A stretch of 64,000 nucleotides of DNA from Anaerolineae bacterium (GTDB lineage: Bacteria > Chloroflexota > Anaerolineae > S140-20), in assembly GCA_027021705.1 (NCBI GenBank), contig JALUTT010000085.1:21526-85525 (forward strand). Reading direction: 5' to 3'. Shown in pieces: positions 25,783 through 64,000 of the stretch (positions are counted from its first letter, which is position 1; each line of letters begins with the position of its first letter). A model generated the notes under the pieces. That model did not search any database. It worked only from the letters and a program-made list of their open reading frames with translations, and was not told where the DNA came from. A program made the position numbers and the translations under genes.

Positions 25783-25784
25783 GG

Positions 25785-38146: not shown

Positions 38147-38241
38147 GCCTCTGCCCCACCGGAACGCACGACACGCTTTCGAGGCCCGGCCCTTCCCGGC
38201 CACGCCGATTCGCGCCGGGCTGCACGGTGAGGAGGTGACCG

Positions 38242-38586: not shown

Positions 38587-38600
38587 CCTTTCGCCTTTAG

Positions 38601-41669: not shown

Positions 41670-41691
41670 CCCCCCACCCCGAGGAGCCCCT

Positions 41692-43505: not shown

Positions 43506-43630
43506 TCCGCAGTCCACAGTCTTTTTCACGCCTGGTGCTCTTTGTGGCCTTGGTGCCCTTTGTGTCCTCCGCGCCGCAAAATCGGCGGTCGGCCGTTGGC
43601 GGTCGGCGGTCCGCCGTCGGCGGTCGGCCG
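43485..43630. repeat. Cluster of short tandem repeats (GTCCGYA, 9-mer CTTTGTG-like, GGCGGTC)
   Basis: gtccgtagtccgcagtccgtagtccgcagtccacagtc; ggcggtcggcggtccgccgtcggcggtc. Confidence 0.75.
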
Positions 43631-47804: not shown

Positions 47805-49904
47805 TCAGGCCGCCGCGTCCCCCTCGCGCACCACGATCTGCCGGATTCGGTCCAGCCGGAAGAGCCGCTCGGCCTGAGCGCGGCGGCAGAAGCCGACCAG
47901 GTAGAGCACCTCCCCCCGTCGCTCCAGCCGATAGGGCTCCACCACCCGGTGGGTCACCTCGTCCCGACCGGCGGTGTAGTAGGCCATCTCCAGGACGCCC
48001 CCCCGCTCCAGCGCCTCCTCGACGAGAGCACGGACTTCCTCGACCGGCAGCGTGGGCGCCGTCCAGGCGGGAAAGGCAGCCCGGCCCTCCAGGGCCTCCT
48101 GCAGCGCGGCCAGAGTCCGCTCCACTGCCACCTCGGCAGCGGTCAGATCGCCCGGATCCGCCAGGGCGGCCAGGTGGTCCAGGAGGGGCTGGGGAAGGTG
48201 GACCGGCAGGGAGAGGAAACGGCCCAGCTTCTGGTAGAGGCGGGCAGCCATCCAGAGATGGGCGGCCCCGCTCCGGCCCAGCGCAGGGTCTGCAGGGGGA
48301 ACGGGTGGAGGAAGCTCGATCCGGGGTGGCACCCCCTCCTGACGGGTCAGGCGGCGGACCAAGAGGGGCAGTTGGGCTTCGTCCACGACGACGGCCCGGC
48401 GGGAGAGGGTGCGGTGGATGAGGCGACGCCCCCGCCGGGTCGAAGCCAGCCGGCTCAGAACCTCGGGCTCCTTCACCTCCAGCACCGTCAGACGGCGCAG
48501 GGTCATCCGGTCCGCCATCTCCCCCCACTCCCGCAGCAGGGCCACCTCCTGGCCGGTGAGCGGACGATCCGTCAGCGCCTCCAGCGCCTCCAGCAGGGCC
48601 GGGATGGACCACCCGCGATGGAGCGCCCTCACGAATCCCGAGGCCGACAAGGTGTACCGGTAGCCTTCCTCCCCGCCCTCCCCACGCCCCCCTTCGCCGA
48701 TCTCCACCGCCACCGCCAGGTGGGCCGGGTCCGGCAATCCCGGGCGCAGCGTCAAGGTGAGCCGGCGCTTCAGCGGATCGGGCTGCCGGTCCAGCGCCAC
48801 CGCGAACCGGGCGAAGGCGAGGGGAGGGAGCCCGGAGCGTAGCGATCCGGCCAGCCACGCCGCCCCCACCGACGACAGCCTGTAGCCCCCTTCCCCCTCC
48901 CCGTCGTCACCGTGCAGGACCCCCAGCCAGACCAGCGGACCGGTGAGGAGTTGGACCACCGCCTCCCGCAAAAGGTCGCGGGCGTTGGGGGTCCTGTCGG
49001 CCACCAGGTCGTAGAGCCGGGGGTGACGGGCGACCAGGGCCCGGGCGAAGCCCTCGGGGTCCGAGGGGGCCATCTCCTCAAGTTCCTCGTGGATGGCGGC
49101 CACCAGCACCTCGGGCCGGACGAGCCAGCCGCTGCCCGGCAGGCGAAAGGCCCGCCACCGGTCGGAGTCCGGCGCCGTCCAGACCTCCCACAGGCGCTGG
49201 AGCCGGTCGGCGCGAGCCCCCCTCAACCAGAGTTCGGCGGCGGGGGTGGGCTTCAGGAAGGGGCCGGCGGGGCCGACGAAGCCGGCCGCCTCGGCCAGGT
49301 AGTGGAGGAAGCGGCGCCGCCCCGTCCGCTTCTCGCTCCGGGCGTTGGGGAAGGCCGGGGGAACGGCACACTGCTCCCCCCAGGCGGCCAGGAAGCCCGG
49401 GGGAAGCCACCCACCGGCCAGCGGCCGGACCTCCTCGCGCCGAAGCAGGGCCAGGAGCAGGGCCAGGTCGTGACAGAGGAGATCGGCCGGCGCAGGACCC
49501 GGGCCGGCGGAGGACGCCGGTGGCGCGGGCAGGGCCGGAGGGGCCGGCAGGTGCGGGATGAGGTCCTCGGGCACGAAGAGGTCGTCCGTCAGCCGATCGT
49601 GGAAGAGGAGCCCCAGGCAGCGCAGCCGTTCCAGGGGAGCCGGGTCTCCCCCTGCCACCGCCCGCGCCGACCGGAAGGGCATACGACCGCCGACGGCCAC
49701 CAGGCTCTCCAGCACACGCCGCTCCTCTCCGGTCAGGTCGGACAGCGCCGCCGCCAGGTTGGCAGGGTCCGGCAGCGTGCGGGCCAGCCGATCCACCAGG
49801 TCGGCCTTGAGGATGTTCGAGGAAAAACGGAGCCCCCGCCGCCGACCAATGATCACCAGCCGCCGCCAGGGAGTTCCTTCCAGAGCTTCGCGCAGGGTCG
49901 TCAT
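47805..49904 (-). CDS. WYL-domain protein with helicase-associated (Helicase_C_3-like) domain
   Basis: C-terminal MAYYTAGR..HRVVEPYRL..YLVGFCRRAQAERLFRLDRI; central YTLSASGFVRAL..GWS..LLREW; AGGAGG RBS. Confidence 0.85.
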   Translation of the reverse strand: MTTLREALEGTPWRRLVIIGRRRGLRFSSNILKADLVDRLARTLPDPANLAAALSDLTGEERRVLESLVAVGGRMPFRSARAVAGGDPAPLERLRCLGLLFHDRLTDDLFVPEDLIPHLPAPPALPAPPASSAGPGPAPADLLCHDLALLLALLRREEVRPLAGGWLPPGFLAAWGEQCAVPPAFPNARSEKRTGRRRFLHYLAEAAGFVGPAGPFLKPTPAAELWLRGARADRLQRLWEVWTAPDSDRWRAFRLPGSGWLVRPEVLVAAIHEELEEMAPSDPEGFARALVARHPRLYDLVADRTPNARDLLREAVVQLLTGPLVWLGVLHGDDGEGEGGYRLSSVGAAWLAGSLRSGLPPLAFARFAVALDRQPDPLKRRLTLTLRPGLPDPAHLAVAVEIGEGGRGEGGEEGYRYTLSASGFVRALHRGWSIPALLEALEALTDRPLTGQEVALLREWGEMADRMTLRRLTVLEVKEPEVLSRLASTRRGRRLIHRTLSRRAVVVDEAQLPLLVRRLTRQEGVPPRIELPPPVPPADPALGRSGAAHLWMAARLYQKLGRFLSLPVHLPQPLLDHLAALADPGDLTAAEVAVERTLAALQEALEGRAAFPAWTAPTLPVEEVRALVEEALERGGVLEMAYYTAGRDEVTHRVVEPYRLERRGEVLYLVGFCRRAQAERLFRLDRIRQIVVREGDAAA

Positions 49905-50025
49905 CGGCCTCCTCCTGCTCAACCCTCGTTGGTCCTCATCGGATTATACATCCATCTGCGGGTCCTGACGTCTCGAGGACGAGGATTCCTACCAAATCTC
50001 GGACCCTCTCTCGGTCTGAGGCCGA

Positions 50026-50134: not shown

Positions 50135-52948
50135 ATGAGAGCACCACGCCTGGGTATGAGTCAGCTCGCCAGGGATGCCGGCTTCGGCACCCGGGTCTGG
50201 AGCGAAACGGGGTACTGGGGTGGGCGTTTCTACCACCTGATCGTGGCCATCGGCACCGCCACCATCCTGATCGCTTCGACCTGGCAGCGCCTGTCCGTAC
50301 CTCTCCTCGTCATCCTGCTGGCCGGCTATGGCCTCTACCTCCTCATCCGCTTCACCCTCATCCGAGGCCACGAGTCCGCCTACTACCGCCCCTGGATCCA
50401 GTTCGTCCGGGCTCAGGTCTCCATCGCCGTGCTGACCATTCTCATCGCCTGGCTGGAACAGAAGGGGGCGCGAGAGTACCTGTGGCTGCTCTACACCCTC
50501 CAGTTGATGATCATCGGTCGCCACCTGAGCACCCTCCTCTTCATCCTGTCCATCCTCCAGGTGTGGGGGCTCCTCGCCTTCCTCCGCCTGGGAATAGCGC
50601 CTCCCTCACCCGCATCCGCCTCCCAGATTCACCGAGACCTGGTCGCCCAAGGGGCGTGGATCGCCCTCATCGGCTTCGTCCTCCACTACTTGCTGCGCAA
50701 CATTGACGCCCGCGACGGAACCATCGCCATGATGAGCCGGATCAACGACCTGGCCCACCGCTCTATGACGGGGCGGGAGTGGAAGAGCCACTGGGAGGCC
50801 GCGTTGAAGACCTACCTGAACAGCGTCGGCGGGCGGCGTGGGCTGGTCTGGCTCTGCAACCCGCGCACGGGAGAGATCCGCCCCTTCTCCGGCCTGGGGA
50901 GGCCCTGCCGTGTCGTCTCCCCGACCGACTCCGACGAGCTCATCCATGTGGACACGGACCATCCCATCGCCGAGGTCGTCCGCACCGGACAGCCCCTCCT
51001 CTGGAGGGCTCAGCCCCGATTGGGCGACCGGCTCTCCCGTGCCCGTCAGGCGGTGCGGATTCACCCGCTCCCCCCCAACGTCTACGCCCGCATTCTGGTC
51101 CCCATCGGTCCGCAGGCCCACGGCGACGGTCTCTGGCTGGGTGTCCTGGGGGTGGACTTCGACCGCGACGATCCCCCCCGGGAGCGGCTGTTGGAGCACT
51201 ACTTCGACTTCTTCCATAACTTGGCCGATTGGGTCGTGCCCGTCCTCCGGTTCGTCCAGCAGATCAGGGAGCAGCAGACCCTGCGCCACATCGGCGTCCA
51301 GGTCTCCAGCAGCCTGCGCCTGGAGACCGTGCTGAACGAGACCCTCGACGCCCTGACAGGGCCGCTGGGCTTCGATCTGGCCACCATTGCCCTGGTGGAC
51401 GAGGAGGCCCAGCTCATCCGCTGCCGGGGTGGGCGCAACGTCCCTCCTGCCTGGGTCGAGCAGATGTGTTACCCCCTGGACAGCCCGACGATCCTGGCCG
51501 ACGTGGTGCGCCGAGGCGAGATCGAGGTCATCCAAGGATGGGATGACCGCCTCGACCGCCGCCTCTACAAGCGATTTCACCAAGACCGGCTCATCCGGGC
51601 CTTTGTGCCCATCCAGCGACAGCCCCAGGGCAACGGCTCCCCTCCCAGGCCCCACGGCGTCGTTGAGGTGGGGTACCGCCTGCGCCACCAGAACCGGATC
51701 CCCCCGGACCAACTGGCTTTGCTGACCACCTTTATGGACCAGGTGGCGGTGGCCATCGAGAAGGCCCGGCTCTTTCGGAACATCCGGCAGCACCGGAAGA
51801 TGCTGGTCCAGCTTCACCGGGTCAGCCACGACATCGCCGACGCCCGCCATCCCGACCGGGTGCTGACGAAGCTGGGGGAGGGCCTGCAACAAGCCCTCGA
51901 GGCCGACATCGTGATGATCTACCGCTTCAACCGCGCGACCCAGGAGATCGAGCCGCCGCTGACCTTCGGCCAGGTGTGGGGCCGGCTCCCCCTCCGGCGC
52001 TCCCCCCTCGACCGGGGCATCATCGCCGAGATCCTGCACAAGGGCCGGCCCTACTACGCACCCGACGCCACTGCCGACCCCCTGCTCTGCCAGCCCAATC
52101 CCCCCCGCACCCAGGGGGAGAGGCCGGGGGGCCGCCGCACCTTCACCGTGCGCCAGAACATCAAATCCTTCGCCGGCGTCCCGATGCTGGTCAACGACGA
52201 GGTCGTGGGCGTCCTGTGCGTCAACTACCGGCGACGCCACGCCTTCTCCGAGAACGAGCGGTGCGTCCTGGAGTTGGCCGCCCAACTGGCCGCCGTCGCC
52301 CTGCGCAACGCCGAGCTCAACGCCCTCGCCGCCGAACTGGCCGCCGAGGAGGAGCGCAAACGGCTGACCTCCCAGTTGCACGACTCCGTCTCCCAACTCG
52401 TCTCCGCCATCCCCCTGATGGTCAGCACGGCCCTGGAACACCTCCCCTCGCAGCCTGACAAAACGGCTCACTGGCTCGAGCGCATCCGCCACACGGCGCG
52501 CCAGATCGCCGTCGAAGTGCGGGCCAACATCTTCGAGATGGGCACCGCCTCCTCCCACGGGCGCAGCCTGCAGCAGGCCCCGGAGGAGGTCGCCGGCCTG
52601 GCCCGAGGATGCTTCCAACTAGAGGTGGAAATCACCTCCCAAATCTCCCCGGAAAGGCTGAGCGCTTCTTTAGAGACCGAGCTGCTCCTGGTCTGCCGTG
52701 AGGCTATCGTCAACGCCGGCCGGCACGCCCAGGCCCGGCGGGTCACGGTGGAGCTCCTGGAGCGTGGTGATCGGGTCTACCTGCGGGTTCAGGACGACGG
52801 GGAGGGGTTTGACCCCTCCGCCCTCAGCCCCTGGGAGCAACGAGGGTTGAAGTTCATGCGCCAGCGCATCGAACGGATGGGAGGCAGGTTCTCCGTCCAC
52901 AGCCGCCCCGGTGAGGGCACGACCATCGAGGCCACCGTGCCGGCCTGA
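50135..52948 (+). CDS. Membrane-bound multi-GAF sensor histidine kinase (HisKA_3/NarX type)
   Basis: About 5-6 N-terminal TM helices; GAF motifs (SFAGVPML..VGVLCV); EERKRLTSQLHDSVSQ H-box; REAIVNAGRHA, DDGEGF, PGEGT. Confidence 0.92.
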   Translation: MRAPRLGMSQLARDAGFGTRVWSETGYWGGRFYHLIVAIGTATILIASTWQRLSVPLLVILLAGYGLYLLIRFTLIRGHESAYYRPWIQFVRAQVSIAVLTILIAWLEQKGAREYLWLLYTLQLMIIGRHLSTLLFILSILQVWGLLAFLRLGIAPPSPASASQIHRDLVAQGAWIALIGFVLHYLLRNIDARDGTIAMMSRINDLAHRSMTGREWKSHWEAALKTYLNSVGGRRGLVWLCNPRTGEIRPFSGLGRPCRVVSPTDSDELIHVDTDHPIAEVVRTGQPLLWRAQPRLGDRLSRARQAVRIHPLPPNVYARILVPIGPQAHGDGLWLGVLGVDFDRDDPPRERLLEHYFDFFHNLADWVVPVLRFVQQIREQQTLRHIGVQVSSSLRLETVLNETLDALTGPLGFDLATIALVDEEAQLIRCRGGRNVPPAWVEQMCYPLDSPTILADVVRRGEIEVIQGWDDRLDRRLYKRFHQDRLIRAFVPIQRQPQGNGSPPRPHGVVEVGYRLRHQNRIPPDQLALLTTFMDQVAVAIEKARLFRNIRQHRKMLVQLHRVSHDIADARHPDRVLTKLGEGLQQALEADIVMIYRFNRATQEIEPPLTFGQVWGRLPLRRSPLDRGIIAEILHKGRPYYAPDATADPLLCQPNPPRTQGERPGGRRTFTVRQNIKSFAGVPMLVNDEVVGVLCVNYRRRHAFSENERCVLELAAQLAAVALRNAELNALAAELAAEEERKRLTSQLHDSVSQLVSAIPLMVSTALEHLPSQPDKTAHWLERIRHTARQIAVEVRANIFEMGTASSHGRSLQQAPEEVAGLARGCFQLEVEITSQISPERLSASLETELLLVCREAIVNAGRHAQARRVTVELLERGDRVYLRVQDDGEGFDPSALSPWEQRGLKFMRQRIERMGGRFSVHSRPGEGTTIEATVPA

Positions 52949-53004
52949 CGCCCCGGACGGTGATCGCCGCCTTGCCTGCCATCCCCACCACGAAAGGGGG
53001 AGCG

Positions 53005-53703
53005 ATGACATCCGAGAAGGACCGACGGATCAGCATCCTCATCGTGGAGGACGCGCCCATCTACCGGGAGGCCCTGGAGGGGTATCTGGAGACCCGACAG
53101 GACCTGTTTGAGGTGATCGGGTGGACAGACCTTCCGGACGTGGCGGTCTCGCTGGTCGAGCAACACGTGCCCGACATCATCCTGCTGGACCTGGTGCTCC
53201 ACCGGGATCAGAACGCCGGCATCCGGGTCATCCACGAGGTGCGTCGGATCAGCCCGACCACCCAGATCGTTGTCCTTACCCATCGTTTCGAGGATAACAT
53301 AGTCTTCAACGCCATCCGAGCCGGGGCTACCACCTACTTGGTCAAGGACAACGTCACCAGTGACGAACTCATTACTGCCCTGATCCGCGTGCGGGATGGG
53401 GATCCCCCGATGGACCCCCAGATCGCCCGCCGTCTCTACGAGTTCTTCCAGTCGCCCGACGCCGGCCCCGACCCATCCTCCCCTCCGCTCACCCGCCGCG
53501 AATGGGAGGTGTTGGAGTTGGTGGCCGAGGGGATGCGCAACCGGGAGATCGCCGAGAAACTGGTCATCACCGAGAAGACGGTCAAGACCCACGTCAGCAA
53601 CATCCTCAGCAAGCTCCACCTGAGCAACCGCACCGAGCTCCAGTGGTGGTACCGGCGGCGTCACTTCGCCGGAGAGGGAGGGGCCGATGTTCCGGGAAAG
53701 TAG
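53005..53703 (+). CDS. NarL/LuxR-family response regulator
   Basis: ILIVED, PDIILLDL, VVLT, YLVK; LTRREWEVLELVAEGMRNREIAEKLVITEKTVKTHVSNIL. Confidence 0.95.
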   Translation: MTSEKDRRISILIVEDAPIYREALEGYLETRQDLFEVIGWTDLPDVAVSLVEQHVPDIILLDLVLHRDQNAGIRVIHEVRRISPTTQIVVLTHRFEDNIVFNAIRAGATTYLVKDNVTSDELITALIRVRDGDPPMDPQIARRLYEFFQSPDAGPDPSSPPLTRREWEVLELVAEGMRNREIAEKLVITEKTVKTHVSNILSKLHLSNRTELQWWYRRRHFAGEGGADVPGK

Positions 53704-53863: not shown

Positions 53864-54006
53864 ACGTCCCGGAATCGTCAGGCGGCCAATGGATTTCCCC
53901 CTTCCTTTCGGATATACTGCCCTTGAAGGACGAACGACACCCTACAGGAAGACCACCGGGTTCAACGTACCGGGGGAATCCCCCGAGGGCTCTCAGGAGG
54001 TGCGCC

Positions 54007-55794
54007 GTGAACCGGTCCGATTCTCAAAGGCTCCGGGCCATCTACCGCAGGGCCCGACGGCGGCTGGGTGGCTGCTGCCTGCTCATGCTCCTCGGCCTGC
54101 TCCTGGCCTGTGGTGCCGTCTGTGGCCTCTCCTTCCACCTGGTGCGTCGGGTGGGAGCCCAGGGCCCCGACCCGGCACCGCTCCAGGTCCTGCTCCTCAT
54201 TGACCAGAGCAACAGCATGTACGAGAAGGGCGGGATCGGCAGCGACCCCAACCTGTTGCGCATCGAAGCGGCCCGCCTCTTCATCACCTACCTGGGCGTG
54301 GACAGCAGTGGACCCGTCCACCGGCTGGGGGTCATCTTCTTCGGCGACCAAGCCCGGCTCATCGTCCCGCTCACCTCCCTGGCCGACGACGCCCGCCGGG
54401 CCGAAATGGTTCGGCTCATCGCCGACCCTCCCCGGATGGGCTGGACGGACCCCCAGGCTGCCCTCGATTTGGCCGCCGAGACGCTGCTGGCGGAGGACGG
54501 GAACGCCCGTCGGGCCGTGATCCTGCTGACCGACGGCAAGCCGGAACGGAGCACCCGACCCACCCCCCAGGAGAAGGCGGTGACCATCGCCCAACTGCGG
54601 GAGACCGCCCGGCGCTTCGCCGACGAGGAGATCTCCCTCTTCCTCGTCCTGCTCCAGAACGAGGCCACCGATGCCGACCCTGAGATCGAGACCCTCTACG
54701 TCCCCCTCTGGCAGGAGATGGCGCAGATGACGCCCCACGGTCGCTTCTACCGGGCCCGCCGGAGCGAGGAACTGCTGGGGATCTACCACGACATCGTCGT
54801 CGCCCTCACCGGCCGCCAGACCGCCGGCGTGGTCGTGCAGACCCAGGTGCAGACGGAGACCGTGGAGACGGTGCTGGTAGAGGCGGGCTTGGCCCAGGTC
54901 ACCTTCGTCGTCCGCAAGAGCGCCCCGGCCCTCCAGGTCACCATCCTGCGTCCCGACGGGCGTCTCCTCACCCCCGGCGATCCCGACGTCCGGTATGGCG
55001 GTCGGCCGGGGCAGAGCCGCGAGGAGGTGTGGGCCGTCCACGCGCCGGCTCCAGGTCTCTGGCGGGTGCGCATCCGTGGGCAGGGTACCGTCACCGTCTG
55101 GAGGGACTTCTACCCGGCCCCACCGACCCCCACGCCCACGCCCTCGCCCACTCCCGCCCCCACCCCATCTCCGTCGCCCACCGCCAGCCCCACCCGCCCG
55201 CCAACGCCATCCCCCTTACCGCTCCTCGTCGCGCCGACCATCAGCCCCCCGATCCCGCTGTCCCCCGCAGGGCCGGCGACGGAGGAGGTCACCGGCAGCG
55301 GCGGCGGACGGTCGGGCCTATGGGTCGGCCTGCTCGTCGTCGGGCTGGCCCTCGGGGGAGGGGGCATCTGGCTCTACCGACGGCGGAGGGCTCCGCTGCT
55401 GGAGGGCACCTTGCGCCGCCTGGCCGCCCCTGTGGGCTCGGCCATCCCAGACCGCCTGGACCTGGACGCGCTCAACCGGCGGGAAGTCCGCCTGGGGCCG
55501 GACCCCGATGCCGACCTCTACCTGCCCGGCACCTCCGACGTGCCAACCCCGCCTGTCCGTCTGATCGCCCAACGGGGGGGAGGAGGCCGCACCGGCATCC
55601 TTCTCACCCTCGAACCCACGAGGAAGCGTGACGGGCAGGCTCGGGTCAACCACCTGCCCGTCACTGACGAATGGCCCCTGCGGGACGGAGACCTGATCAC
55701 CCTGGGGGCCTACCGCTTCCGGTACGAGAACCTGCGCCGCCGTTCGAGGGGAGGCACCGAGCGAGGGATGAGGCAACGAGACACTGAGGGATGA
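54007..55794 (+). CDS. vWA-domain membrane protein with Pro/Thr linker, second TM and degenerate C-terminal FHA-like domain
   Basis: AGGAGG + GTG start; MIDAS DQSNS..T..LTDG; PTPTP linker; VN....PLRDGDLITLGAYRFRY FHA-like end. Confidence 0.85.
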   Translation: MNRSDSQRLRAIYRRARRRLGGCCLLMLLGLLLACGAVCGLSFHLVRRVGAQGPDPAPLQVLLLIDQSNSMYEKGGIGSDPNLLRIEAARLFITYLGVDSSGPVHRLGVIFFGDQARLIVPLTSLADDARRAEMVRLIADPPRMGWTDPQAALDLAAETLLAEDGNARRAVILLTDGKPERSTRPTPQEKAVTIAQLRETARRFADEEISLFLVLLQNEATDADPEIETLYVPLWQEMAQMTPHGRFYRARRSEELLGIYHDIVVALTGRQTAGVVVQTQVQTETVETVLVEAGLAQVTFVVRKSAPALQVTILRPDGRLLTPGDPDVRYGGRPGQSREEVWAVHAPAPGLWRVRIRGQGTVTVWRDFYPAPPTPTPTPSPTPAPTPSPSPTASPTRPPTPSPLPLLVAPTISPPIPLSPAGPATEEVTGSGGGRSGLWVGLLVVGLALGGGGIWLYRRRRAPLLEGTLRRLAAPVGSAIPDRLDLDALNRREVRLGPDPDADLYLPGTSDVPTPPVRLIAQRGGGGRTGILLTLEPTRKRDGQARVNHLPVTDEWPLRDGDLITLGAYRFRYENLRRRSRGGTERGMRQRDTEG

Positions 55795-55943
55795 GGCAAC
55801 GAGACACCGGGGGGTAAGGGGCAGGGGGCAAGGAGCAGGGGGCAAGGGGCAGGGGGCAAGGAGCAGGGGGCAAGGGGCAGGGGGCCTGGCGACCTAGCGG
55901 CTTAGCGGCGGACTGAGGACCAAGGACCGAGGACTGAGGACTA
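55766..55943. repeat. 23-bp direct repeat plus GGGGCAR and GGACYRA heptamer arrays
   Basis: gggatgaggcaacgagacac twice; ggggcagggggcaaggagca...; ggactgaggaccaaggaccgaggactgagg. Confidence 0.8.
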
Positions 55944-55948
55944 AACCG

Positions 55949-57598
55949 CTGAACCACTGCATGATGCGGGGGGCTTCACCGTCCGTTACCCCAACGGTCG
56001 GGTGATCACCCCTCAGCGTTGAACTCACCGTGCCCGGCTGGGCCGACCGCCTGCCTGCCCGCTCGGCCCCGGCCGAACTGGTGCGCTACGTGCGAGACTA
56101 CGAACGGATCCGCCTGGGCACCGACTTCAGACGCTGGCTCTCCCAGAACGAAGCCCTGCTGGCCGAGGAGGCCGAAGCGACCCTGACCGATCACCTCACC
56201 CGTCTCGCCCGCCGGGCAGGGCTCCCGCCGACCGAAAGCTTCCTGAAGGGCGTGCTGCACCGGCTGGACGAGGCGGCCTCCCGACTGAGCGCCCGCCAGG
56301 CGGAGCGGGAAGGCCAACAGGCGGAGCTGAGCCGGGAGCTGGCCCGGCTGGAGACCGTCTTCCTCCAGGCGGGTGAGGGGAGCTTCCTGGGCCGGAGCCG
56401 TCGGGTGTCCCGCGCCCGTCAGACCTACTTCGCCGCAGCCCAGCGCCTCTTCCGCCTGCGCTGGCACCTTCAGGTGACCGCTGCAGCCCTCGCCCTTCTG
56501 AACCGCCTGAGCCGGGCGGCCCGGGACCACCTGGCCGCCTGTCAGGAGACGGCCCTCCGCCTCAAGGCGGTCCACCGTGCTCTCCAGGAGGTCGCAACCC
56601 GGTTCGACGACGGGCAGGCTCAGGCCGGTGTGACCACCCGCTCCCTGGCCGACGAAGTCCTGGTCGCCGCCCTCTTCCGGCGCCACGCCCCCCCACCGGC
56701 CGACACGCTGGCAACCCTCTTCAGCGACGGAGCCTCCCCCCTCGACTGGCAGGATGCACCTCCCGAGCGCATTCAGGCCGCCCTGCTCGCCGCCTGCCGG
56801 CCCCCCTTCGCCTCCGTCGCCGCCATGAGCGTCGAGGAGGCCATCGCCCTGCGCGCCGAAAAGGCCACCCCCGAGGGGTACTACCGTTGGCTGATGGACC
56901 AGGCGACGCCCTCGTGGAACCTAGACCACACCCGGCTGCCCGATGGAGGGGCCAACCTCCAGCGGCTGGAGGTGCTCGGCGTCCCCGACGAGACGAACAC
57001 CCTCTACCGCCACCACGCCACCACCCTCGTCTCCACCAACGATCGGACGCGACTTATCGCCTTCGTCGCCCACATCGGTGCACCCCACACCGCGCTGCAG
57101 CAGTGGGAAAGCTACCAGGCGACCTACGAGCAGGCCCGCGGTAGGGTCCCGCTCCACGTTCTTCCCCAGTTCCAGACCGACGGCGAGCAGGCCCGCCAGG
57201 CCTTCGCCCTGGGCTTCCTCTTCGGCTTCATCAGGAGCCAGGGGGCCGCCTTCGACTACGTCCCGGCCGACCGCCTGGAGCGGCCCACCCGGCTGGGCCG
57301 GGACCTGGATGACGCCCTCCGGGCCTTCGCCCGGCGCGATGACCTGGTGCAGGAGACCTGGGAGCGGGTAGAGCAGTGGGTGGCCAGCCGGGGGATCGAA
57401 GCCACCCTGCGCACGCTGACCGCCTACTACCGCGCCGACGACCACCACGACCTGGCCGACGACCTGGTGCTGGAGCTGAAGCGGCTGGTGCGGGCCTACG
57501 CCGACCGGCTGCGCCAGATCCATCAGTTCGCCCTCGGCCCCCCCTCCCCGGAAGCGCGGGAGGGGTGGGAGCAGGAGGGAAGGCAAGATGAACCCTGA
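55949..57598 (+). pseudogene. N-terminally deleted tubulin/FtsZ-like (Tubulin_2 / FtsZl1-type) gene; C-terminal ORF 56030-57598
   Basis: The ORF has no RBS and no GTPase domain. Upstream frameshifted relic LNHCMMRG/GFTVRYPNGRVIT. Helical body parallels the next gene (QATPSW vs QASPFL). Confidence 0.5.
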
Positions 57599-59768
57599 GG
57601 GAATCCAGCGGACGCTGATGGTCGGGTTAGGGGAGGGTGGCGCCCACGTCGTCGCCGCCTCGCTGGCCCGCCTGAGAGAGAGGCTGGCGTCCGACGGCGT
57701 CGTGGCCGGCCTCGCCGTTCAGGTCGCCGAGGCTGACGAGCCCCCTCCCCTCAGCGCCACCCTCACCATCTCGCCGGAAACCCCCTTCGCCCGGTGGCAG
57801 GAGGAGTTCGAGGCGATGGTCGGCCCCCTGCTGCGCCGGGTCTCGCGCCTGGACCACCTCACCGCCCTGGTCCAGCAGGGCCTGAGCCTGCGTCGAGCCG
57901 GCGAGGTACACCTCATCCTGGTGGCCGACCTGGCCGAGCCCTGGGTCGGGCGCACGCTGATGGCCGTGGCCGGTGCCCTGCGGGCGAGCGTCCACCGCAC
58001 CCTCGCTTGTGACGCCGGCCTGACCGGCCTCCTGCTGCTCCCCCCCGCAGCCGAGTCCGACCCCCCTTGCCCCGGTAAGCCCCTCCCCGGAGCGGGCGAG
58101 GTGGCGGGGGATGGGCCCGGAAACCCCTTCGACCGGGGCTGCTTCCTCGTCAGCCCGACCAACGAGGCGGGCCTCGTCGTCGGCGACTCGGAAGCGCTGA
58201 TCCATCGGACGGCCCACTTCCTGGCCCTCCTGGTCACCTCGCCCCTGGGAGCAGCGGTGGCCGAGTCGGACTGGGACCCGGCCGGCCCCTCGGGATGGGA
58301 GCCCTCCTCCCTGGCCAGCTTCGGGCTGGCCGCCATCCGTTGGCCCGGTCCGGCGCTGGTGGAGGCTCTGAGCGCCCGCTGGGCCGGGGAACTCCTCGCC
58401 CGGCTGACCGCCTCCATCCCCGGCGTCGAGGAGGAGGCCGATGCCGCCGCCCGCCGGTGGGCGGCCGGGGAGCGGCTGGCCCCTTCCTTCCTCTTGGAGC
58501 GCCTCTCCACCCTCGCGCCGGCCCCGCCCAACCCCCTGGCCGACGGCGTGCCCGATCCCCCCTGGCCCTGGGAACTGGTCGGCCTCCGAGAGCGGCTGGA
58601 GGCCGCCGTCCGGCGCTGGGAGGAGGCGTGGCAGGCCACGGACGAGGCCCTGACGACCGCCCTGGCCGAGGCCCGGGCGACCTGGCGGGAGGCCGCCCGG
58701 CGCTGGCTGGACCGGCAGCTCGCCTCCCCTGCCGAAGGAGCCCTCCGGCGCATCGGTGCCCGCCTGGAGGCCGTCGCCCGCCTCCTGAGGGCCTTCGTCG
58801 AGGAGGTGGAGGCCGGGGTGGAGGAAGCCCACCGGGAACTGGAAGCCGTCGAGGAGCAGCTTGCCGCTGCCGCCGAGGCCCTGTCCCGCCACTTGGCCCC
58901 GTTGCCCGGCTCACCGCTGGCGGCGCTGCTGCGCTGGGGACCCCACCCCCTGCGGTGGCCCCGGCGGTGGGGCCAGTGCCGCCGGGCCCAAGACCTCGCC
59001 CGGCACCACGCCCACCTGCTCCGCGCCCGCCTGGTGGCCCTTCGGACCCTCCGGCTCCACGAAAGGGCGCTGCCCTGCTACCGGGCTATGCAAGCGGCGT
59101 GGGCGGAGGTCCTCGAGGCCTGGGCCTGCTGCAGTGCCCAGGTGATCCAGGCCGCCGGCTCGCCCACCCTGGCCGGCTGGCAGGAGCAGCAGCAGGCCGC
59201 CCTGGAGAGCTCCGGCGGGCCGTGGACCCCCGCCCTGGTCGAAGCCCTCTACGAGGCCGCCGAGGACCTGGAGGATGGCCCCCTCTGGGACCCCCCCGGC
59301 CCGCTCCGTCGGTGGATGGAGGAGGGCACGCCGGCCGAGGAGATCGAGGGCCAACTGCGGGACCACGCCGCCGGACGGCTGCGCCCCCGGCTCCTCCTGC
59401 CGGTGGACCTGGCGCTGGCCCGGCAGATGGCCGACGAAGCACACCTGGCCGACTGGCTGGCCGCCTTCGTCGCCCAGGCCAGCCCTTTCCTGCGCTACGA
59501 CGAGACGGCGCTGACCGAGGAGAGCCGGGCCCGGACCCGGCTGGACCGCTGGCTCCTGCTCCCCGGCGGGGAACGTTCGCCCCTGGCCCGCCTCTGCCAG
59601 CGCTGGTCCCAACCGCCCCTCCTGCTGGAGAGCCAGGAGCCGGGGGAGATGATCGCCGTCACCGTGCGGCGGAGAGCAGTCCGTTTTGGAGCGGATAGCC
59701 GTCAGCGGAGTAGGGAACGGATTGAGCAGATAGGAGAGCCCCTCTCTCCGTTCAATCCGCTCTCCTAA
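57588..59768 (+). CDS. Degenerate tubulin/FtsZ-like domain protein with long helical C-terminus
   Basis: TLMVGLGEGG (T1-like), VHLILVADL, PFDRGCFLVSPTNEAG, SFGLAAI; lacks the GGGTGSG signature. Confidence 0.65.
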   Translation: MNPEGIQRTLMVGLGEGGAHVVAASLARLRERLASDGVVAGLAVQVAEADEPPPLSATLTISPETPFARWQEEFEAMVGPLLRRVSRLDHLTALVQQGLSLRRAGEVHLILVADLAEPWVGRTLMAVAGALRASVHRTLACDAGLTGLLLLPPAAESDPPCPGKPLPGAGEVAGDGPGNPFDRGCFLVSPTNEAGLVVGDSEALIHRTAHFLALLVTSPLGAAVAESDWDPAGPSGWEPSSLASFGLAAIRWPGPALVEALSARWAGELLARLTASIPGVEEEADAAARRWAAGERLAPSFLLERLSTLAPAPPNPLADGVPDPPWPWELVGLRERLEAAVRRWEEAWQATDEALTTALAEARATWREAARRWLDRQLASPAEGALRRIGARLEAVARLLRAFVEEVEAGVEEAHRELEAVEEQLAAAAEALSRHLAPLPGSPLAALLRWGPHPLRWPRRWGQCRRAQDLARHHAHLLRARLVALRTLRLHERALPCYRAMQAAWAEVLEAWACCSAQVIQAAGSPTLAGWQEQQQAALESSGGPWTPALVEALYEAAEDLEDGPLWDPPGPLRRWMEEGTPAEEIEGQLRDHAAGRLRPRLLLPVDLALARQMADEAHLADWLAAFVAQASPFLRYDETALTEESRARTRLDRWLLLPGGERSPLARLCQRWSQPPLLLESQEPGEMIAVTVRRRAVRFGADSRQRSRERIEQIGEPLSPFNPLS

Positions 59769-59892
59769 TCCGTTGACAGCAGTCCTTCTAGAGCGGATAG
59801 CCGTCAGCGGATTCGGGAACGGATTGAGCGGATGGGAGAGCCCCTCTCTCCGTTCAATCCGCTCTCCCAATCCGTTGACAGCAGTCCTTCTA
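59689..59892. repeat. Two tandem 102-bp palindromic units
   Basis: 59689-59790 and 59791-59892; each reads GCCGTCAGCGGA..ACGGATTGAGC..loop..TCCGTTCAATCCG..ATCCGTTGACAGC. Confidence 0.9.
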
Positions 59893-59956
59893 GAGCAGCC
59901 CGTTTCGGAAAGCGGGCTGGCGCTCCCACACCACATATTGTACGAGGAGGTATCCT

Positions 59957-61141
59957 ATGTTCGAGGAAAACCTTGAGGGCTACCGCCCATACCGCTGGAA
60001 CGACTGGAACCCCTGGTGGAACGGCCTCGACTGGGAGGAGGCCCGAGAGGTGGTGGACCGGGAGAGCCGGGCGCGCATCCTGCTGCTGGGCCTGGTCAAC
60101 GCCGGCAAGTCCACCCTCCTCAACCGGCTGCGAGGCTGCACGCTCTCCCTGCCCACCTCGGGGATCGAGGCCCCGGAGGAGGCCCGGGCGGGCGGGGGAT
60201 GCCGGGTTGAGGACTTCGGCCTCTTCTGCCTGGTGGACCTACCCGAGGAGGCGACCGGCGAAGGGGCCGAGGAGGATTTCCTGGCCTACGGCCTCTCCCC
60301 CCTCCAGATGGCCGAGGAGGCCGACCTGCTGGTCTACCTCCTCGACGGGGCCGCCGGCGTGCGGGTGGCCGACTACCGCTGGATCGGCCGCCTGCGCCGG
60401 CTGGGCCGCCCCCTGCTGGTCGCGTTGAACAAGAGCGACCTGGTGGAGGAGGAGACCTTCGCCCAGTTGCCCGAACTGGAAAAACGGCTCGCCACCTCGG
60501 TGCTCCCCATCTCGGCCCTGGACGGCACCAACGTGCTGGACCGGCTCCTGCCGCGTATGGTGGATGCCTCCCCCGGCCTGGCCGTCCCCCTGGGGAGGGA
60601 ACTGCACGGCTTCCGCCGCCAGGCGGCCGCCCGCCTCATCCGACGGGCCGCCCTCTTCAACGGCTTCATCGCCCTGGAGCCGGTGCCCTTCCTCGACATC
60701 CCCTTCCAGATGGCCACCCTCGTCGGGATGGTGATGCGCATCGGTGCCGTCTACGACCGCCCCCCCACCGATGCCCACCGACGGGAGGTGATCGCCGCCG
60801 TCACCGGAGGGCTGCTGGGTCGCTACGCCACCCAGCAGGCGATCAAGCTCATCCCCTTCGTCGGCTGGCTGATCAGCAGCTTCATCGCCGTCTCCTGCAC
60901 CTGGCTGCTGGGCCGAGCCGCCGTCGCCTACTTCGAGGCCGGGGGGGATGTCATCCTGACCGAGGGATGGGACCGGGTTCGGAACCGCCTGCACCGCCAC
61001 CGGCAGCCCCCGGAGGCGACCCGGCGGTGGACGGCGGACGCCTGGGCCGGCCTTCGCCGCCGCTGGCAGAACCTGTTCCGCCCCGCCCGTGGGAGCGACG
61101 AGCAGACCCCCCTCCCCACCGATGAGGAACGCCCGAGGTGA
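59957..61141 (+). CDS. Era/Ras-like GTPase with C-terminal DUF697/YcjF-like membrane region
   Basis: G1 GLVNAGKST, degenerate G3 DLPE, G4 NKSD, G5 ISA; LEPVPFLDIP and KLIPFVGW; GAGGAGG RBS. Confidence 0.82.
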   Translation: MFEENLEGYRPYRWNDWNPWWNGLDWEEAREVVDRESRARILLLGLVNAGKSTLLNRLRGCTLSLPTSGIEAPEEARAGGGCRVEDFGLFCLVDLPEEATGEGAEEDFLAYGLSPLQMAEEADLLVYLLDGAAGVRVADYRWIGRLRRLGRPLLVALNKSDLVEEETFAQLPELEKRLATSVLPISALDGTNVLDRLLPRMVDASPGLAVPLGRELHGFRRQAAARLIRRAALFNGFIALEPVPFLDIPFQMATLVGMVMRIGAVYDRPPTDAHRREVIAAVTGGLLGRYATQQAIKLIPFVGWLISSFIAVSCTWLLGRAAVAYFEAGGDVILTEGWDRVRNRLHRHRQPPEATRRWTADAWAGLRRRWQNLFRPARGSDEQTPLPTDEERPR

Positions 61142-61171: not shown

Positions 61172-62095
61172 ATGAGCCCTTCCCTTCACCTACCCGACGA
61201 CGTCGGAACCGACCTGTTGGCCGCCCCCCGGGGGCCCCTGCGCCGGGTGGATCCCGAGGCCCTCTTCTCCCTCGACGCCCTGCGCCGGGCCTGGCTGAAG
61301 GTGAGGGCGGCCGGCGGTGGCCCCGGCGTGGATGGCGTGACCATCCGCCGCTTCGAGAAGGAGCTGGAGGCCAACCTGGCCGCCCTGCGAGCCGAACTGC
61401 TGGCCGGTCGCTACCGCCCCTACCCCGTCAAGCGCCTGCTGGCCCCCAAACCGGGGGGTGGCCTGCGCCCCATCGCCCTCTGGGCCCTGCGCGACCGGGT
61501 GGTGCAGCGGCTGGTCCACGACTGCATCGCCCCCTACTTTGAACGCCACTTCTTGGATTGCAGCTTCGGCTTCCGCCCCGGTCGCGGGGTGGCCGACGCC
61601 GTGCAGGCGGTCCTCGCCCACCGGGACGCCAACCGGCGCTGGGTGGCCGACGTGGACATCAAGGACTGCTTCGACAGCCTGGACCCGAACCTGCTGATGC
61701 GCTTCGTGCGCCGGCAGGTGAAGGACCCCACCATCCTGCGGCTGATCCGAGCCTGGCTCAACGCCCGGGTCTTCAACGCCCTGCGGGGCCCCTGGACCCG
61801 GGCCGGGGCCTCCCAAGGGGCCGTCATCTCTCCCCTGCTGGCCAACGTCTACCTGCACCAGGTGGACCTGCAACTGACCGGCCAGGGTTACCACCTGGTC
61901 CGCTACGCCGACGACCTGGTGATCTGCTGTCGGCGCAAACGGGAGGCCCAACGGGCGATGGAAGCCACCGCCGTAGCGCTCCGGCGAGTCCGGCTGCAGA
62001 TCAACCCCCACAAATCCCGCCTGGTCCACTTCGACCAGGGCTTCCAGTTCTTGGGGGTCTTCTTCCTGCGCAACGAGCACTTCTACCTGGGATAG
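61172..62095 (+). CDS. CRISPR-associated stand-alone reverse transcriptase (group II intron-derived)
   Basis: RT0 AWLKV..GPGVDG, RT1-2 KPGGGLRPI..RDRVVQ, SFGFRPG, DIKDCFD, QGAVISPLLANVYL, RYADD, FQFLG. Ends right after RT7 with no maturase X or endonuclease domain; adjacent to cas1. Confidence 0.93.
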   Translation: MSPSLHLPDDVGTDLLAAPRGPLRRVDPEALFSLDALRRAWLKVRAAGGGPGVDGVTIRRFEKELEANLAALRAELLAGRYRPYPVKRLLAPKPGGGLRPIALWALRDRVVQRLVHDCIAPYFERHFLDCSFGFRPGRGVADAVQAVLAHRDANRRWVADVDIKDCFDSLDPNLLMRFVRRQVKDPTILRLIRAWLNARVFNALRGPWTRAGASQGAVISPLLANVYLHQVDLQLTGQGYHLVRYADDLVICCRRKREAQRAMEATAVALRRVRLQINPHKSRLVHFDQGFQFLGVFFLRNEHFYLG

Positions 62096-62104
62096 GGCCA
62101 GGAG

Positions 62105-62198
62105 CCCTCCCGCAGGCCCTTCCTATGGCCTGAAGCGCGTCGTGGGCAGCCCCCATAGGCCACTGCTATCGCCGGGCACCGCGGGACCTGCGGGAGGG
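62105..62198. repeat. 94-bp element with 12-bp terminal inverted repeats, copy 2 (between RT and cas1)
   Basis: CCCTCCCGCAGG (62105-116) and CCTGCGGGAGGG (62187-198), followed by TGAA as in copy 1. Confidence 0.6.
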
Positions 62199-62218
62199 TG
62201 AAACCAGGAGGTGACACG

Positions 62219-63241
62219 ATGCCCCCGGTCTACGTGCGGGAACAAGGCGCGATCATCCGCCGGCGGGGCGAGCGGTTGATCGTCGTGCGTGATGGAAAAG
62301 CGTTGCTGGACCTTCCCCTCATCCACCTGGACCAACTGGTCCTCTTCGGCAACGTCCAGCTCACCGCCCCGGCCGTCGCCATGCTGCTTCAGGCCGAGGT
62401 GGACGTCGTCTTCTTCTCCCGGTATGGCAAGTTCCGGGGCCGGCTGGTGCACACCGGCTCCAAATTCGCCCGGCTGCGCCACGCCCAGTTGCAGAAGATG
62501 AGCGATGCTCAGACCTCTCTGGACATCGCCCGCCACGTCGTGGCCGGGAAGCTGCACAATCAGCAGGCCCTGCTGCGGACCTGGGCGGTCCAGGCGCCGG
62601 CCTCCGTCCAGGGCCAGGTGCAGCGGGCCGTGGCCGGCATCGGGCGGATGCTGGAACGGGCTCTGACCACCCCCTCCCCCGACTCGCTGCGGGGTTTCGA
62701 GGGAAAGGCGGGGGCCGACTACTGGGCGGCCTTCCGGGCGCTCCTGGCCGAGGACTGGGGCTTTCGGAGCCGCCAGTACTTCCCACCCCCCGATCCCGTC
62801 AACGCCCTCCTCAGCTTCGGCTACGCCCTGCTCCTCAAGGACGTCACCGCCGCCGTGCAACTGGTCGGCCTGGACCCCTACCTGGGCTTCCTGCACACCA
62901 TTGACTACGGACGTCCGTCGTTGGCGCTGGATATGATGGAGGAGTTCCGACCGGTCCTGGTGGACCCCCTGGTGCTGGAGATGGTCAACGGGGGGGAGGT
63001 GACGGCGGCCGCCTTCGAGCGGACGGCCAATCCCCGGCGGCCGATCCGGCTCACCGATGCCACCACCGACGCCCTGATCCAGCGCTACGAAGCGCGGCTG
63101 GAGATGCGGGCCGTCCATCCCGACGCCGGAGGACAGACGGCCTACCGGCGCATCATCGAGCTCCAGGTGCGCCGGCTGGCCCGGCTGATCCTGGGCAAGG
63201 CGAAGCGATACCGGCCCTTCCTGGTTCGGAGCCGGCGATGA
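62219..63241 (+). CDS. cas1: CRISPR-associated integrase Cas1
   Basis: LRGFEG..Y, DPVNALLSFGY, GLDPYLGFLH, SLALDMMEEFRP..VD (E/H/E catalytic residues); AGGAGG RBS. Confidence 0.97.
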   Translation: MPPVYVREQGAIIRRRGERLIVVRDGKALLDLPLIHLDQLVLFGNVQLTAPAVAMLLQAEVDVVFFSRYGKFRGRLVHTGSKFARLRHAQLQKMSDAQTSLDIARHVVAGKLHNQQALLRTWAVQAPASVQGQVQRAVAGIGRMLERALTTPSPDSLRGFEGKAGADYWAAFRALLAEDWGFRSRQYFPPPDPVNALLSFGYALLLKDVTAAVQLVGLDPYLGFLHTIDYGRPSLALDMMEEFRPVLVDPLVLEMVNGGEVTAAAFERTANPRRPIRLTDATTDALIQRYEARLEMRAVHPDAGGQTAYRRIIELQVRRLARLILGKAKRYRPFLVRSRR

Positions 63242-63696
63242 GGCGCTTCTGGAGACGTCCCCGTCGGCTGGCCGTCTACTGCGACGGGGCCATCGGTGAC
63301 CGGGGTGAGGGGACCGGCCTGGGGGTCATCGTCCGCGACGAGCGGGGGGAGATCATCGGGCTGGTGAAGCGGACGCTGCCGCCGATGACCAACAACGAGG
63401 CCGAATACGCGGCCCTCGTGCTGGCCTTGGAGGCGGCCTGGCACTTTCGGCCCCGTCGGCTGGAGGTCTACATGGACAGCGAGGTGGTGATCGGGCAGAT
63501 GCAGGGGCGCTTCGCCGTGCACAGCCCGGCGTTGAAGCGGTGGCACGTCCGGGCCTGTCGGTTGGCCCGGCGCTTTCGGGAGGTGACGTACCATTACATC
63601 CCGAGGGAGGCCAACCGGCTGGCCGATGCCCTGGCCGGCGAGGCGCTGAGCGAGGCGCGGAAGGAGGGGAACGATGTTCGTCGTCGTCAGCTATGA
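63238..63696 (+). CDS. Ribonuclease HI family protein
   Basis: VYCDGA..G.GVIV, TNNEAEYAAL..AL, MDSEVVIGQM.G, IPREANRLADALA: complete D-E-D-D set; ATGA overlap with cas1. Confidence 0.93.
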   Translation: MRRFWRRPRRLAVYCDGAIGDRGEGTGLGVIVRDERGEIIGLVKRTLPPMTNNEAEYAALVLALEAAWHFRPRRLEVYMDSEVVIGQMQGRFAVHSPALKRWHVRACRLARRFREVTYHYIPREANRLADALAGEALSEARKEGNDVRRRQL

Positions 63697-63961
63697 CATC
63701 CCGGACGATCGCCGGCGGACGCGGGTGATGAAGGTGCTCAAGGACTTCGGGGCGCACGTGCAGTACAGCGTCTTCGAGTGCGAGTTGAGCGCCAAGGACT
63801 ACCGGCGGCTGCGGGAGCGGCTCAGCCCGTTGATTGACCGGGAGGAGGACAGCGTGCGCTTCTACGAGCTGTGTCGGGAGGACGTCCGGCGGCGTCGGGT
63901 GTGGGGGAAGAAGCGGGCGGAGCTGGACCTGCGTCCGTGGTACCTGGTGCGGCGTTCGTAG
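63674..63961 (+). CDS. cas2: CRISPR-associated protein Cas2
   Basis: VVSYDIPDDRRRTRV.K.LKDFG.HVQYSVFEC..EDSVRFYELC; AAGGAGG RBS inside the RNase H gene. Confidence 0.97.
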   Translation: MFVVVSYDIPDDRRRTRVMKVLKDFGAHVQYSVFECELSAKDYRRLRERLSPLIDREEDSVRFYELCREDVRRRRVWGKKRAELDLRPWYLVRRS

Positions 63962-63969
63962 GTCAACGA

Positions 63970-64000
63970 GGTCAACGAATGGAGAACGAATAAACGAATG
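63970..64000. repeat. Left arm of another ACGAAT-family palindrome (cut by the window edge)
   Basis: GGTCAACGAATGGAGAACGAATAAACGAATG is almost the exact reverse complement of 43833-43864. Confidence 0.7.

Follow-up and report, generated by a model that had tools for sequence, protein, structure and literature searches.

The RT-Cas1-RNase HI-Cas2 operon

In this study, we analysed a stretch of 64,000 nucleotides (nt) from an Anaerolineae heat-vent bacterium (assembly GCA_027021705.1, contig JALUTT010000085.1, referred to as C85, positions 21526–85525; hereafter the window), which ends at the end of its contig. At positions 61172–63961 it carries an adaptation operon of a CRISPR system, in which a gene for ribonuclease HI (RNase HI) is placed between cas1 and cas2 and a reverse transcriptase (RT) gene precedes both. 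The operon and its downstream edge comprise the following features (aa, amino acids):

61172–62095, plus strand: stand-alone CRISPR-type RT, 307 aa (RVT_1 6.9e-39, TIGR04416 1.8e-85)
62198–63241, plus strand: cas1, probable true start at 62219 (PF01867 1e-88, TIGR00287 5.7e-84)
63238–63696, plus strand: 152-aa RNase HI belonging to the RVT_3 / LC11 / Sto-RNase HI type, with the DEDD residues D16, E56, D80 and D130
63674–63961, plus strand: cas2 (PF09827 4.1e-26, TIGR01573 1.5e-18)
63962–64000, plus strand: first part of a probable CRISPR leader, cut off by the contig end at 64000

RT, Cas1, RNase HI and Cas2 are encoded in a single, tightly packed operon. The sequence ATGA at 63238–63241 is common to the cas1 stop and the RNase H start, and the cas2 ATG at 63674 overlaps the end of the RNase H gene by 23 nt, with its own ribosome-binding site AGGAGG located 6 nt upstream. 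The order of the open reading frames (ORFs), their coordinates, both overlaps and the separate ribosome-binding site of cas2 are thus found as the original prediction, made from the letters of the window, had described them. The identical 23-nt overlap between RNase H and cas2 is present in the related loci L020 and L021, and in 10 further related loci the distance from the RNase H stop to the cas2 start ranges from -1 to +7 nt. Because M8 is nearly invariant among relatives (alignment A2), we place the cas1 start at the ATG at 62219 behind an AGGAGG, which is probably the true one. The RNase H/cas2 junction is spanned by contigs from three further public sequencing runs of two other studies, the cas1/RNase H junction only by one run, which is possibly the source of the present DNA.

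Sequence and predicted fold identify the 152-aa protein as an RNase HI whose predicted active site is intact. It matches RVT_3 (PF13456, 9.7e-26, 90.5 bits at a cut-off of 21.6) and RNase_H (PF00075, 7.4e-9, 36.3 bits at a cut-off of 25.8). All four acidic catalytic residues that had been read from the translation are present, the catalytic glutamate E56 being the second E of NNEAEY; they align with those of solved RNases HI and are invariant in 22 of 22 linked homologues and in 29–30 of 30 rows of a further alignment, where the sole gap stems from a start trimmed too short. The solved enzymes nearest to it in sequence comprise LC11-RNase H1 (7e-19), the Rv2228c N-terminal domain, RNase H1 of Halobacterium and RNase HI of Sulfolobus tokodaii, with matches to the PDB entries 3u3g, 4h8k, 2ehg, 3hst and 4e19 at E-values of 7e-19 to 2e-7. 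The AF2 model (pLDDT 93.6) has the RNase H fold, is matched by Foldseek to 3hst, 4e19, 3u3g and 4h8k (E 4e-15 to 1e-11) and reaches target-normalised TM values of 0.77–0.94 against solved enzymes, among them Rv2228c-N, Halobacterium RNase H1 and LC11-RNase H1. No cas or accessory model of PADLOC matched the protein at E <= 0.01, and Pfam and NCBIfam returned RNase H families only. A search for longer or fused RNase H forms gave none at E <= 1e-10, a negative that is weak evidence. In a complex prediction of RT, Cas1 and Cas2 with the RNase H as partner a score of 0.00 was obtained, from which, as a result without control runs, no verdict is drawn.

Recurrence of the arrangement

For the reference scan, covering one genome per species and 185,579 species, the best 80 RNase H relatives were kept, and their loci were typed by tblastn with the four proteins of the window, cas and RT genes being sought within 5 kb at E 1e-5. 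We distinguish an order A, RT-Cas1-(RemA)-RNH-Cas2, from an order B, RNH-(RemA or SPFH-like protein)-RT-Cas1-Cas2, in which RNH denotes the RNase H. Of these best 80 relatives, 29 lie in RT/cas1/cas2 operons, and these are the closest ones, with 39–59% identity. Eighteen of them show the full RT-Cas1-RNH-Cas2 order, seven the same order broken off at a contig end, three RNH-RT-Cas1-Cas2 and one RNH followed by RT. All 29 hosts are named Chloroflexota, the named orders being Anaerolineales, Caldilineales, Aggregatilineales, Thermoflexales and Ardenticatenales. For the other 51 relatives, no cas or RT gene was found at the distance and threshold given above.

Among the best 79 metagenome relatives, counted with the window's own contig left out, 67 contigs are linked to RT/cas1/cas2 (57 in order A, 10 in order B); the remainder consists of one tubulin-RNH contig and 11 contigs with the RNase H alone, nine of which are at 40% identity or less. 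In a large protein collection we found 255 clusters at E <= 1e-20, and the best 120 of these 255 are 54–82% identical, many on contigs of 1–4 kb, and carry only the names 'ribonuclease HI', 'reverse transcriptase-like protein' and 'probable phosphoglycerate mutase'. In an even sample of 401 Chloroflexota genomes (hereafter the phylum sample), whose tallies include the unpublished G145 and G344, of which no loci were analysed, the regions around co-located hits show the RNase H linked to RT-Cas1-Cas2 in 13 genomes, mostly as RNH-X-RT(long)-Cas1-Cas2-(WYL), while one genome has an RT alone. That the arrangement might be a one-off, an objection foreseen in the original prediction, is therefore contradicted by all three samples (29/80, 67/79 and 13/401). 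Its claim about the position of the gene holds in part: an RNase H between cas1 and cas2 recurs throughout order A, but this position is not essential, since in order B the RNase H is located upstream of RT.

The RT was found at every RNase H-linked locus where the flank was visible, so that the proposed co-occurrence of the cas1/cas2-linked RNase H with RT is supported. The width of the flank matters in this respect: in the phylum sample, flanks of 1.5 kb showed the RT at 2 of 29 loci, and wider regions put many RTs 1.4–2.8 kb downstream.

Phylogeny and the RNases H of the host

In a tree of 110 rows, a single starred split (98) of 40 rows unites the 32 rows with linked RT or cas genes, without exception; its other members are L030, L117 and six long-branch Bacillota. 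When 34 context rows, with L117 included, were constrained to stay together, the resulting tree exceeded the free quick tree by 10.5 lnL (p-AU 0.66). On these alignments, it is possible for the linked RNases H to make up a separate clade. L117, whose contig stops 211 nt past the gene, is placed as sister to L110, an RT-linked locus of the same genus. Pairwise distances of the RNase H correlate with the Cas1 distances (r = 0.89, 17 loci) and the RT distances (r = 0.81, 15 loci) about as closely as Cas1 and RT do with each other (r = 0.91), and none of 5000 permutations gave as high a value for any pair.

The host genome has one RNase HII and one degenerate second RNase HI-like gene. The latter, located on contig C108 (locus L010:1339–1803), encodes 154 aa with a weak match (22 bits), in which D, E and D are kept, Q replaces the fourth Asp and the C-terminus is shortened. 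A separate housekeeping rnhA, for which the original prediction had suggested a search, is hence not kept; the RNase HII and this degenerate paralogue are found instead. The RNase HI of the module is, by these sequence criteria, the only canonical one of the host genome. The concern that the genome's only RNase HI might group with housekeeping enzymes is thereby borne out in its first half but not in its second, as the enzyme is split from 27 of 29 Chloroflexota RNases HI without cas context, which fall outside the split described above. In the phylum sample, 214 of 401 genomes have a match to RVT_3-type RNase HI at E <= 1e-10, and within the families f2–f12, which we read as the class of the window, 6 of 45 genomes match the RNase HI family at the same threshold.

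A second adaptation locus of the same genome, on contig C104 (locus L103, about 1346–2708), consists of a Cas6-like gene, cas1, cas2 and an array of 8 repeats. Its cas1, 38–48% identical, is read in two frames owing to a frameshift or an assembly error near codon 55, and neither RT nor RNase H was found at this locus.

The reverse transcriptase and its type III context

The RT possesses the YADD box, reading RYADDLV, and its TIGR04416 match spans model positions 2–269 of 353. Its profile aligns to residues 4–278 of the 428-aa GsI-IIC RT and to 358–599 of the Cas6-RT-Cas1 structure 7kft. From the extent of these two alignments, and with the domain limits that we take the GsI-IIC RT to have, we read the protein as fingers and palm only, lacking the thumb/X domain. 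PADLOC assigned it to the cas RT model PDLC01136 (1.3e-86) and to the RT part of Cas1_IIIb (2.8e-54). No Rfam family, intron RNAs included, was found at gathering thresholds in the window or on contig C98. A group II intron-type RT with YADD hence adjoins cas1, and both cas1 and cas2 are intact, as expected of an RT-linked adaptation module.

About 19 kb upstream of the adaptation genes and on the same strand, NCBIfam and Pfam matches delineate a type III-D-like effector operon:

30473–42519, plus strand: type III-D-like effector operon, with the genes below
30473–32419, plus strand: Cas10
32403–34289, plus strand: Csx10
34768–35634, plus strand: Csx7
37133–38146, plus strand: RAMP protein (TIGR03986)
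40386–41669, plus strand: protein with DUF4062 and a CARF-like Cas_NE0113/Csx14 domain, directly before Cas6
41692–42519, plus strand: Cas6

Type III effector genes and RT-cas1-cas2 thus reside in the same locus, and the DUF4062/CARF-like protein may be a signalling accessory. Type III context was also observed beside the relatives L044, L028 and L030, and the module has type III-B genes as immediate neighbours in L044, L028 and L177. The suspected association with type III systems was in this way recovered in the window, effector genes including Cas10, and beside some relatives.

The contig ends 39 nt past cas2, and contig C98, with a candidate array for this position, is linked to it by a 30-nt overlap only: this contig of 1865 bp starts with the last 30 nt of the window and continues with about 470 nt of leader and 17–18 repeats of 37 nt. 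The same 37-nt repeat is present on contigs C121, C142 and C86. For the 40 spacers of the arrays on C98, C121 and C142, no full-length match was found in the host genome, where partial matches span 17–29 nt. The host genome is unusually rich in CRISPR loci, with four cas1 loci (C155, C85, C104 and C117) and at least ten arrays, which together have five or more distinct repeat types and several of which fill whole small contigs; 47 repeats were counted on C32, 162 on C54, 80 on C117 and 63 on C155.

Further genes of the module and its surroundings

Upstream of the RT and, for the last entry, downstream of it, the window contains the following further features:

47805–49922, minus strand: WYL-domain protein of about 700 aa (WYL 1.8e-17; PADLOC cas-associated WYL 7.3e-17)
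50135–53703: GAF histidine kinase and LuxR-type response regulator, between the WYL and vWA genes
53923–55794, plus strand: vWA protein (VWA_2 9.8e-11; blastp 9e-54 to the vWA protein of L036)
56030–57598 and 57588–59768, plus strand: two tubulin-like ORFs (blastp 7e-18 and 3e-5 to parts of the Tubulin_2 protein of L036)
59957–61141, plus strand: GTPase with a fused DUF697 domain, immediately before RT (DUF697 4.6e-9, MMR_HSR1 2.1e-7)
62101–62201, no strand assigned: copy of a genome-wide repeat of about 100 bp, between the RT stop and the cas1 start

The RNase H is one of several extras of the module, which in most cases also has the DUF697 GTPase, a RemA-like protein (in relatives only) and the WYL protein. 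The GTPase-DUF697 gene directly precedes RT in 16 of 19 reference loci of order A and in 26 of 37 metagenome loci with RT visible. A RemA-like gene (PF04025, formerly DUF370) of about 92–110 aa separates cas1 from the RNase H in 24 of 47 metagenome loci with cas1 visible, and is placed between the RNase H and RT in order B; examples are L021:4712–4990, L022:4712–4990, L044:5401–5733 and the metagenome loci L195–L221. It was found neither in the window nor in the host genome. The RemA-like protein may be a DNA-wrapping leader factor. In order B, a protein X of 425–575 aa (L168–L176, L028:5674–7401), whose N-terminal domain is conserved and whose coiled coil is rich in Q/E/R/A, is placed between the RNase H and RT. 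No Pfam or PADLOC family matched it, and an SPFH/Band 7-like identity, suggested by a protein atlas feature score of 0.93 and structure TM values of 0.35–0.47, is to be taken as a lead only.

Homologues of the WYL protein are located downstream of cas2 in 13 reference and 27 metagenome loci, and the protein of about 700 aa is a probable CRISPR regulator. A pair of vWA and tubulin-like genes was also observed near the module in L034, L036, L046, G258, G290 and L236–L239; on the ORFs of the window, the Tubulin_2 profile reaches only 19.5 bits, which is under its cut-off. Operons of vWA, FtsZl1 and GTPase genes assigned to 'membrane remodelling' are treated by Makarova and Koonin 2010 (PMC2875224); the genes of the window resemble them, with a clear vWA match, candidate FtsZl1-type ORFs whose profile match is below cut-off, and a putative counterpart of the GTPase. 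A link of such vWA/FtsZl1-type/GTPase genes with CRISPR adaptation is so far undescribed. GerE/LuxR regulators are also found upstream of the module in L022 and L041.

The repeat of about 100 bp is structured, bears terminal inverted repeats and has more than 100 matches across the genome at 75–88% identity, partly in tandem arrays with a period of about 100–110; further copies are present on contigs C71, C50, C133, C162 and C96, and 2.2 copies at 59675–59896, after the tubulin-like ORF. No Rfam family matched it at gathering thresholds. RT and cas1 abut or overlap in relatives, unlike in the window, where the repeat is inserted between them. The assembly contigs of all four public runs break at this copy, where the depth in one run is 3660 compared to about 75. 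Intergenic tandem repeats of heptamers or octamers (e.g. GGGGGCA x11) were additionally observed at 55810–55885, 25783–25912, 43483–43628 and 20258–20357.

Proposed function of the RNase HI

The proposal that the RNase H forms part of the RT-linked adaptation module, instead of being a stray housekeeping gene, is strongly supported by its recurrence, its co-occurrence with RT, the type III context, its possible clade and its co-divergence with Cas1 and RT. Taken together, the comparisons of loci and sequences establish that an RNase HI gene has long been kept inside RT-bearing cas1-cas2 operons of type III systems. We consider it reasonably probable that an active RNase HI has been recruited as a dedicated accessory of this RT-dependent, type III-linked adaptation module, in which it would hydrolyse the RNA of RNA:cDNA. 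Its most likely task in spacer acquisition is to remove or nick the RNA strand in the RNA:cDNA hybrids made by RT; its substrate, its step of action and any physical association with RT, Cas1 or Cas2 are points that we infer only.

For the conversion of an RNA or RNA/cDNA intermediate to a double-stranded DNA spacer, the RT-linked CRISPR systems studied so far are assumed to rely on enzymes of the host. In our model, the thumb-less RT would copy invader or transcript RNA into cDNA and the RNase HI would hydrolyse the RNA strand of the resulting hybrid. Hydrolysis could take place before integration, so that the second DNA strand would be made and Cas1-Cas2 would integrate DNA, or after integration of an RNA-containing intermediate by Cas1-Cas2, the gap then being repaired to DNA. 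The module would encode its own RNase HI because hosts like the present one are without a canonical one. Exactly such an RNase H route is named as conceivable by Mohr et al. (bioRxiv 10.1101/2023.09.01.555893).

In its most far-reaching form, which we regard as unlikely, the model would be an obligatory retrovirus-like route of thumb-less RT, dedicated RNase HI, second-strand synthesis and Cas1-Cas2 integration, in which a RemA-like protein replaces IHF at the leader and the DUF697 GTPase, with FtsZl1/vWA or SPFH proteins, tethers the machinery to the membrane where invader nucleic acid enters. If true, this membrane-tethered route would constitute a multi-part adaptation complex of an undescribed kind.

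Several observations weigh against a dedicated role of the RNase HI in removing RNA during adaptation. Mohr et al. (10.1101/2023.09.01.555893) argue that an RNase H route misfits the Marinomonas spacers and that dN-tailed RNA or RNA/cDNA is integrated directly. Since the Marinomonas enzyme integrates directly, an RNase H step is no general requirement, and since the route misfits the Marinomonas data, the Chloroflexota modules may work differently. Four of the 401 genomes of the phylum sample (G290, G267, G148 and G076) have RT-Cas1-Cas2 without RNase H, which is, by this comparison, dispensable in evolution; G290, which is of the class of the window, has vWA-tubulin-GTPase-RT-Cas1-RemA-Cas2 without RNase H, its RemA-like gene being kept. 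Conversely, L030 and L223 carry an RNase H of the clade beside a tubulin-like gene, with no RT or cas1 within 4–5 kb. Keeping 33 context rows of the tree together without L117 was rejected (p-AU 0.02), and the groups of the clade tests were named after the tree had been seen. A shared species history contributes to the correlation of distances and would also give rise to one, and reference and metagenome loci may partly coincide, as for L037 and L238, both of 32,759 bases.

Alternatively, the RNase HI could make substrates or primers by nicking hybrids, i.e. RT products or R-loops on transcribed invader DNA, into short 3'-OH pieces for Cas1 or RT and so help to set the prespacer length. Cleavage by RNase H yields 3'-OH and 5'-phosphate ends, as required for the chemistry of Cas1, while most RNases leave cyclic phosphates. 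The ends would thus fit, the RT is without a thumb, so priming or processivity may need help, and order B puts the RNase H on the RT side of the operon. This alternative draws on the same comparative evidence as strand removal, and the sequences do not separate nicking from it; we know, however, of no RNase H-dependent priming for group II-type RTs, and Marinomonas RT-Cas1 is reported to initiate without such help (10.1101/2023.09.01.555893). Altogether we judge it to be quite unlikely.

Another possibility, which appears improbable, is that the RNase H serves interference or locus upkeep, resolving R-loops at the highly transcribed array or at type III targets, or works together with the vWA, tubulin-like and GTPase genes. 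Type III immunity is transcription-dependent, the surroundings of the module repeatedly contain vWA and tubulin-like genes, and in L030, between a Tubulin_2 gene and Card1/CARF genes, as well as in L223, the RNase H has the tubulin-like neighbour described above and no RT or cas1 in view. Against such a role, the RNase H sits inside the RT-cas1-cas2 operon in 96 of 159 loci (29 + 67) and co-diverges with Cas1 and RT, while effector genes, among the queries used, occur at 1 of 13 RNase H-linked loci of the phylum sample (L177) and also at 2 of the 4 loci without RNase H (L183, L184). The position in the operon makes roles outside adaptation less likely, although L030 and L223 still allow them.

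That a general-purpose RNase HI rides on a mobile CRISPR module and supplies the housekeeping activity to hosts that lost theirs would agree with the lack of another canonical RNase HI in the host genome and with the small number of genomes of its presumed class in which the family is present, and no sequence feature sets the enzyme apart from free-standing ones. We nevertheless consider this very improbable, as the host has an RNase HII, the clade is tied to RT-bearing operons across several named Chloroflexota orders, and the cas1-cas2 locus without RT on C104 is without RNase H. A chance insertion without function in the operon, supported by nothing else than the related loci lacking the RNase H, can practically be dismissed in view of the invariant active site, the conserved packing and the recurrence in 29 of the 80 reference loci and 67 of the 79 from metagenomes.

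Comparison with known systems

Known adaptation accessory nucleases are Cas4, DnaQ/DEDDh nucleases fused to Cas2, and Csn2. Like the RNase HI, they are encoded by small extra genes in or beside cas1-cas2 and probably act on prespacers, but the RNase HI differs in fold and chemistry, since enzymes of this type cut the RNA strand in RNA:DNA hybrids rather than trimming the ends of DNA. No homology to the Cas4, DEDDh-Cas2 or Csn2 families was found, the protein matching only RNase H families and no PADLOC model. Retroviral and long terminal repeat (LTR) elements combine the same three activities of RT, RNase H and integrase; in contrast, the genes described here are separate, their RNase H belongs to the cellular RVT_3 type, and Cas1 is unrelated to retroviral integrase. 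With LC11, Sto-RNase HI, Rv2228c-N and the Halobacterium enzyme the RNase HI shares sequence, fold and DEDD residues at equal places. Enzymes of the LC11 group stand alone or are fused to a phosphatase, whereas the present clade is embedded in CRISPR adaptation operons.

The closest known counterparts are the RT-Cas1/Cas2 type III systems of Marinomonas mediterranea, Vibrio vulnificus and Thiomicrospira (Cas6-RT-Cas1), in which, as here, a group II-type YADD RT adjoins Cas1 and Cas2, and whose spacer acquisition is treated in bioRxiv 10.1101/2023.09.01.555893, PMC6821258 and PMC8102632. In contrast to these systems, the present RT is a separate 307-aa protein without thumb and without fusion to Cas6 or Cas1, and neither an RNase HI, as found here, nor a RemA-like protein and DUF697 GTPase, as found in relatives, is reported for them. 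By layout alone, the module can be likened to the unfused-RT clades 9 and 13 (Toro et al. 2018, PMC6013744) and to branch 7 (Silas et al. 2017, PMC5513706), which also have an unfused RT next to cas1-cas2 in type III loci. The main texts of both papers, supplements aside, mention neither RNase H nor Chloroflexi, and that of Silas 2017 no ribonuclease. An RNase HI in an adaptation operon was likewise not found by term searches in the RT-CRISPR and type III accessory surveys, supplements aside, of Silas 2017, Toro 2018, Shah 2018, Hoikkala 2024, Makarova 2025, and Koonin and Makarova 2019. In full-text searches, supplements aside, we found no account of such a gene, apart from one passing sentence in a hot-spring Cas1 survey (PMC9755687), which names the same three accessory families as found here.

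The layout, recurring in dozens of related genomes, suggests a so far undescribed step in turning invader RNA into DNA memories in some CRISPR systems. A module with an RNase HI of its own that is conserved in many Chloroflexota and frequent among environmental contigs points to a step of RNA-strand removal or nicking, and the module offers a compact gene set in which this RNA-removal step is open to mutation. RNase HI, RemA-like protein and DUF697 GTPase are candidate adaptation accessories outside current cas profile sets, and the module may be useful for RNA-recording tools built on RT-Cas1-Cas2. Compared to the systems described so far, the RT-linked type III adaptation module is thus known in kind, while the probably dedicated RNase HI and the further accessories constitute its new part.

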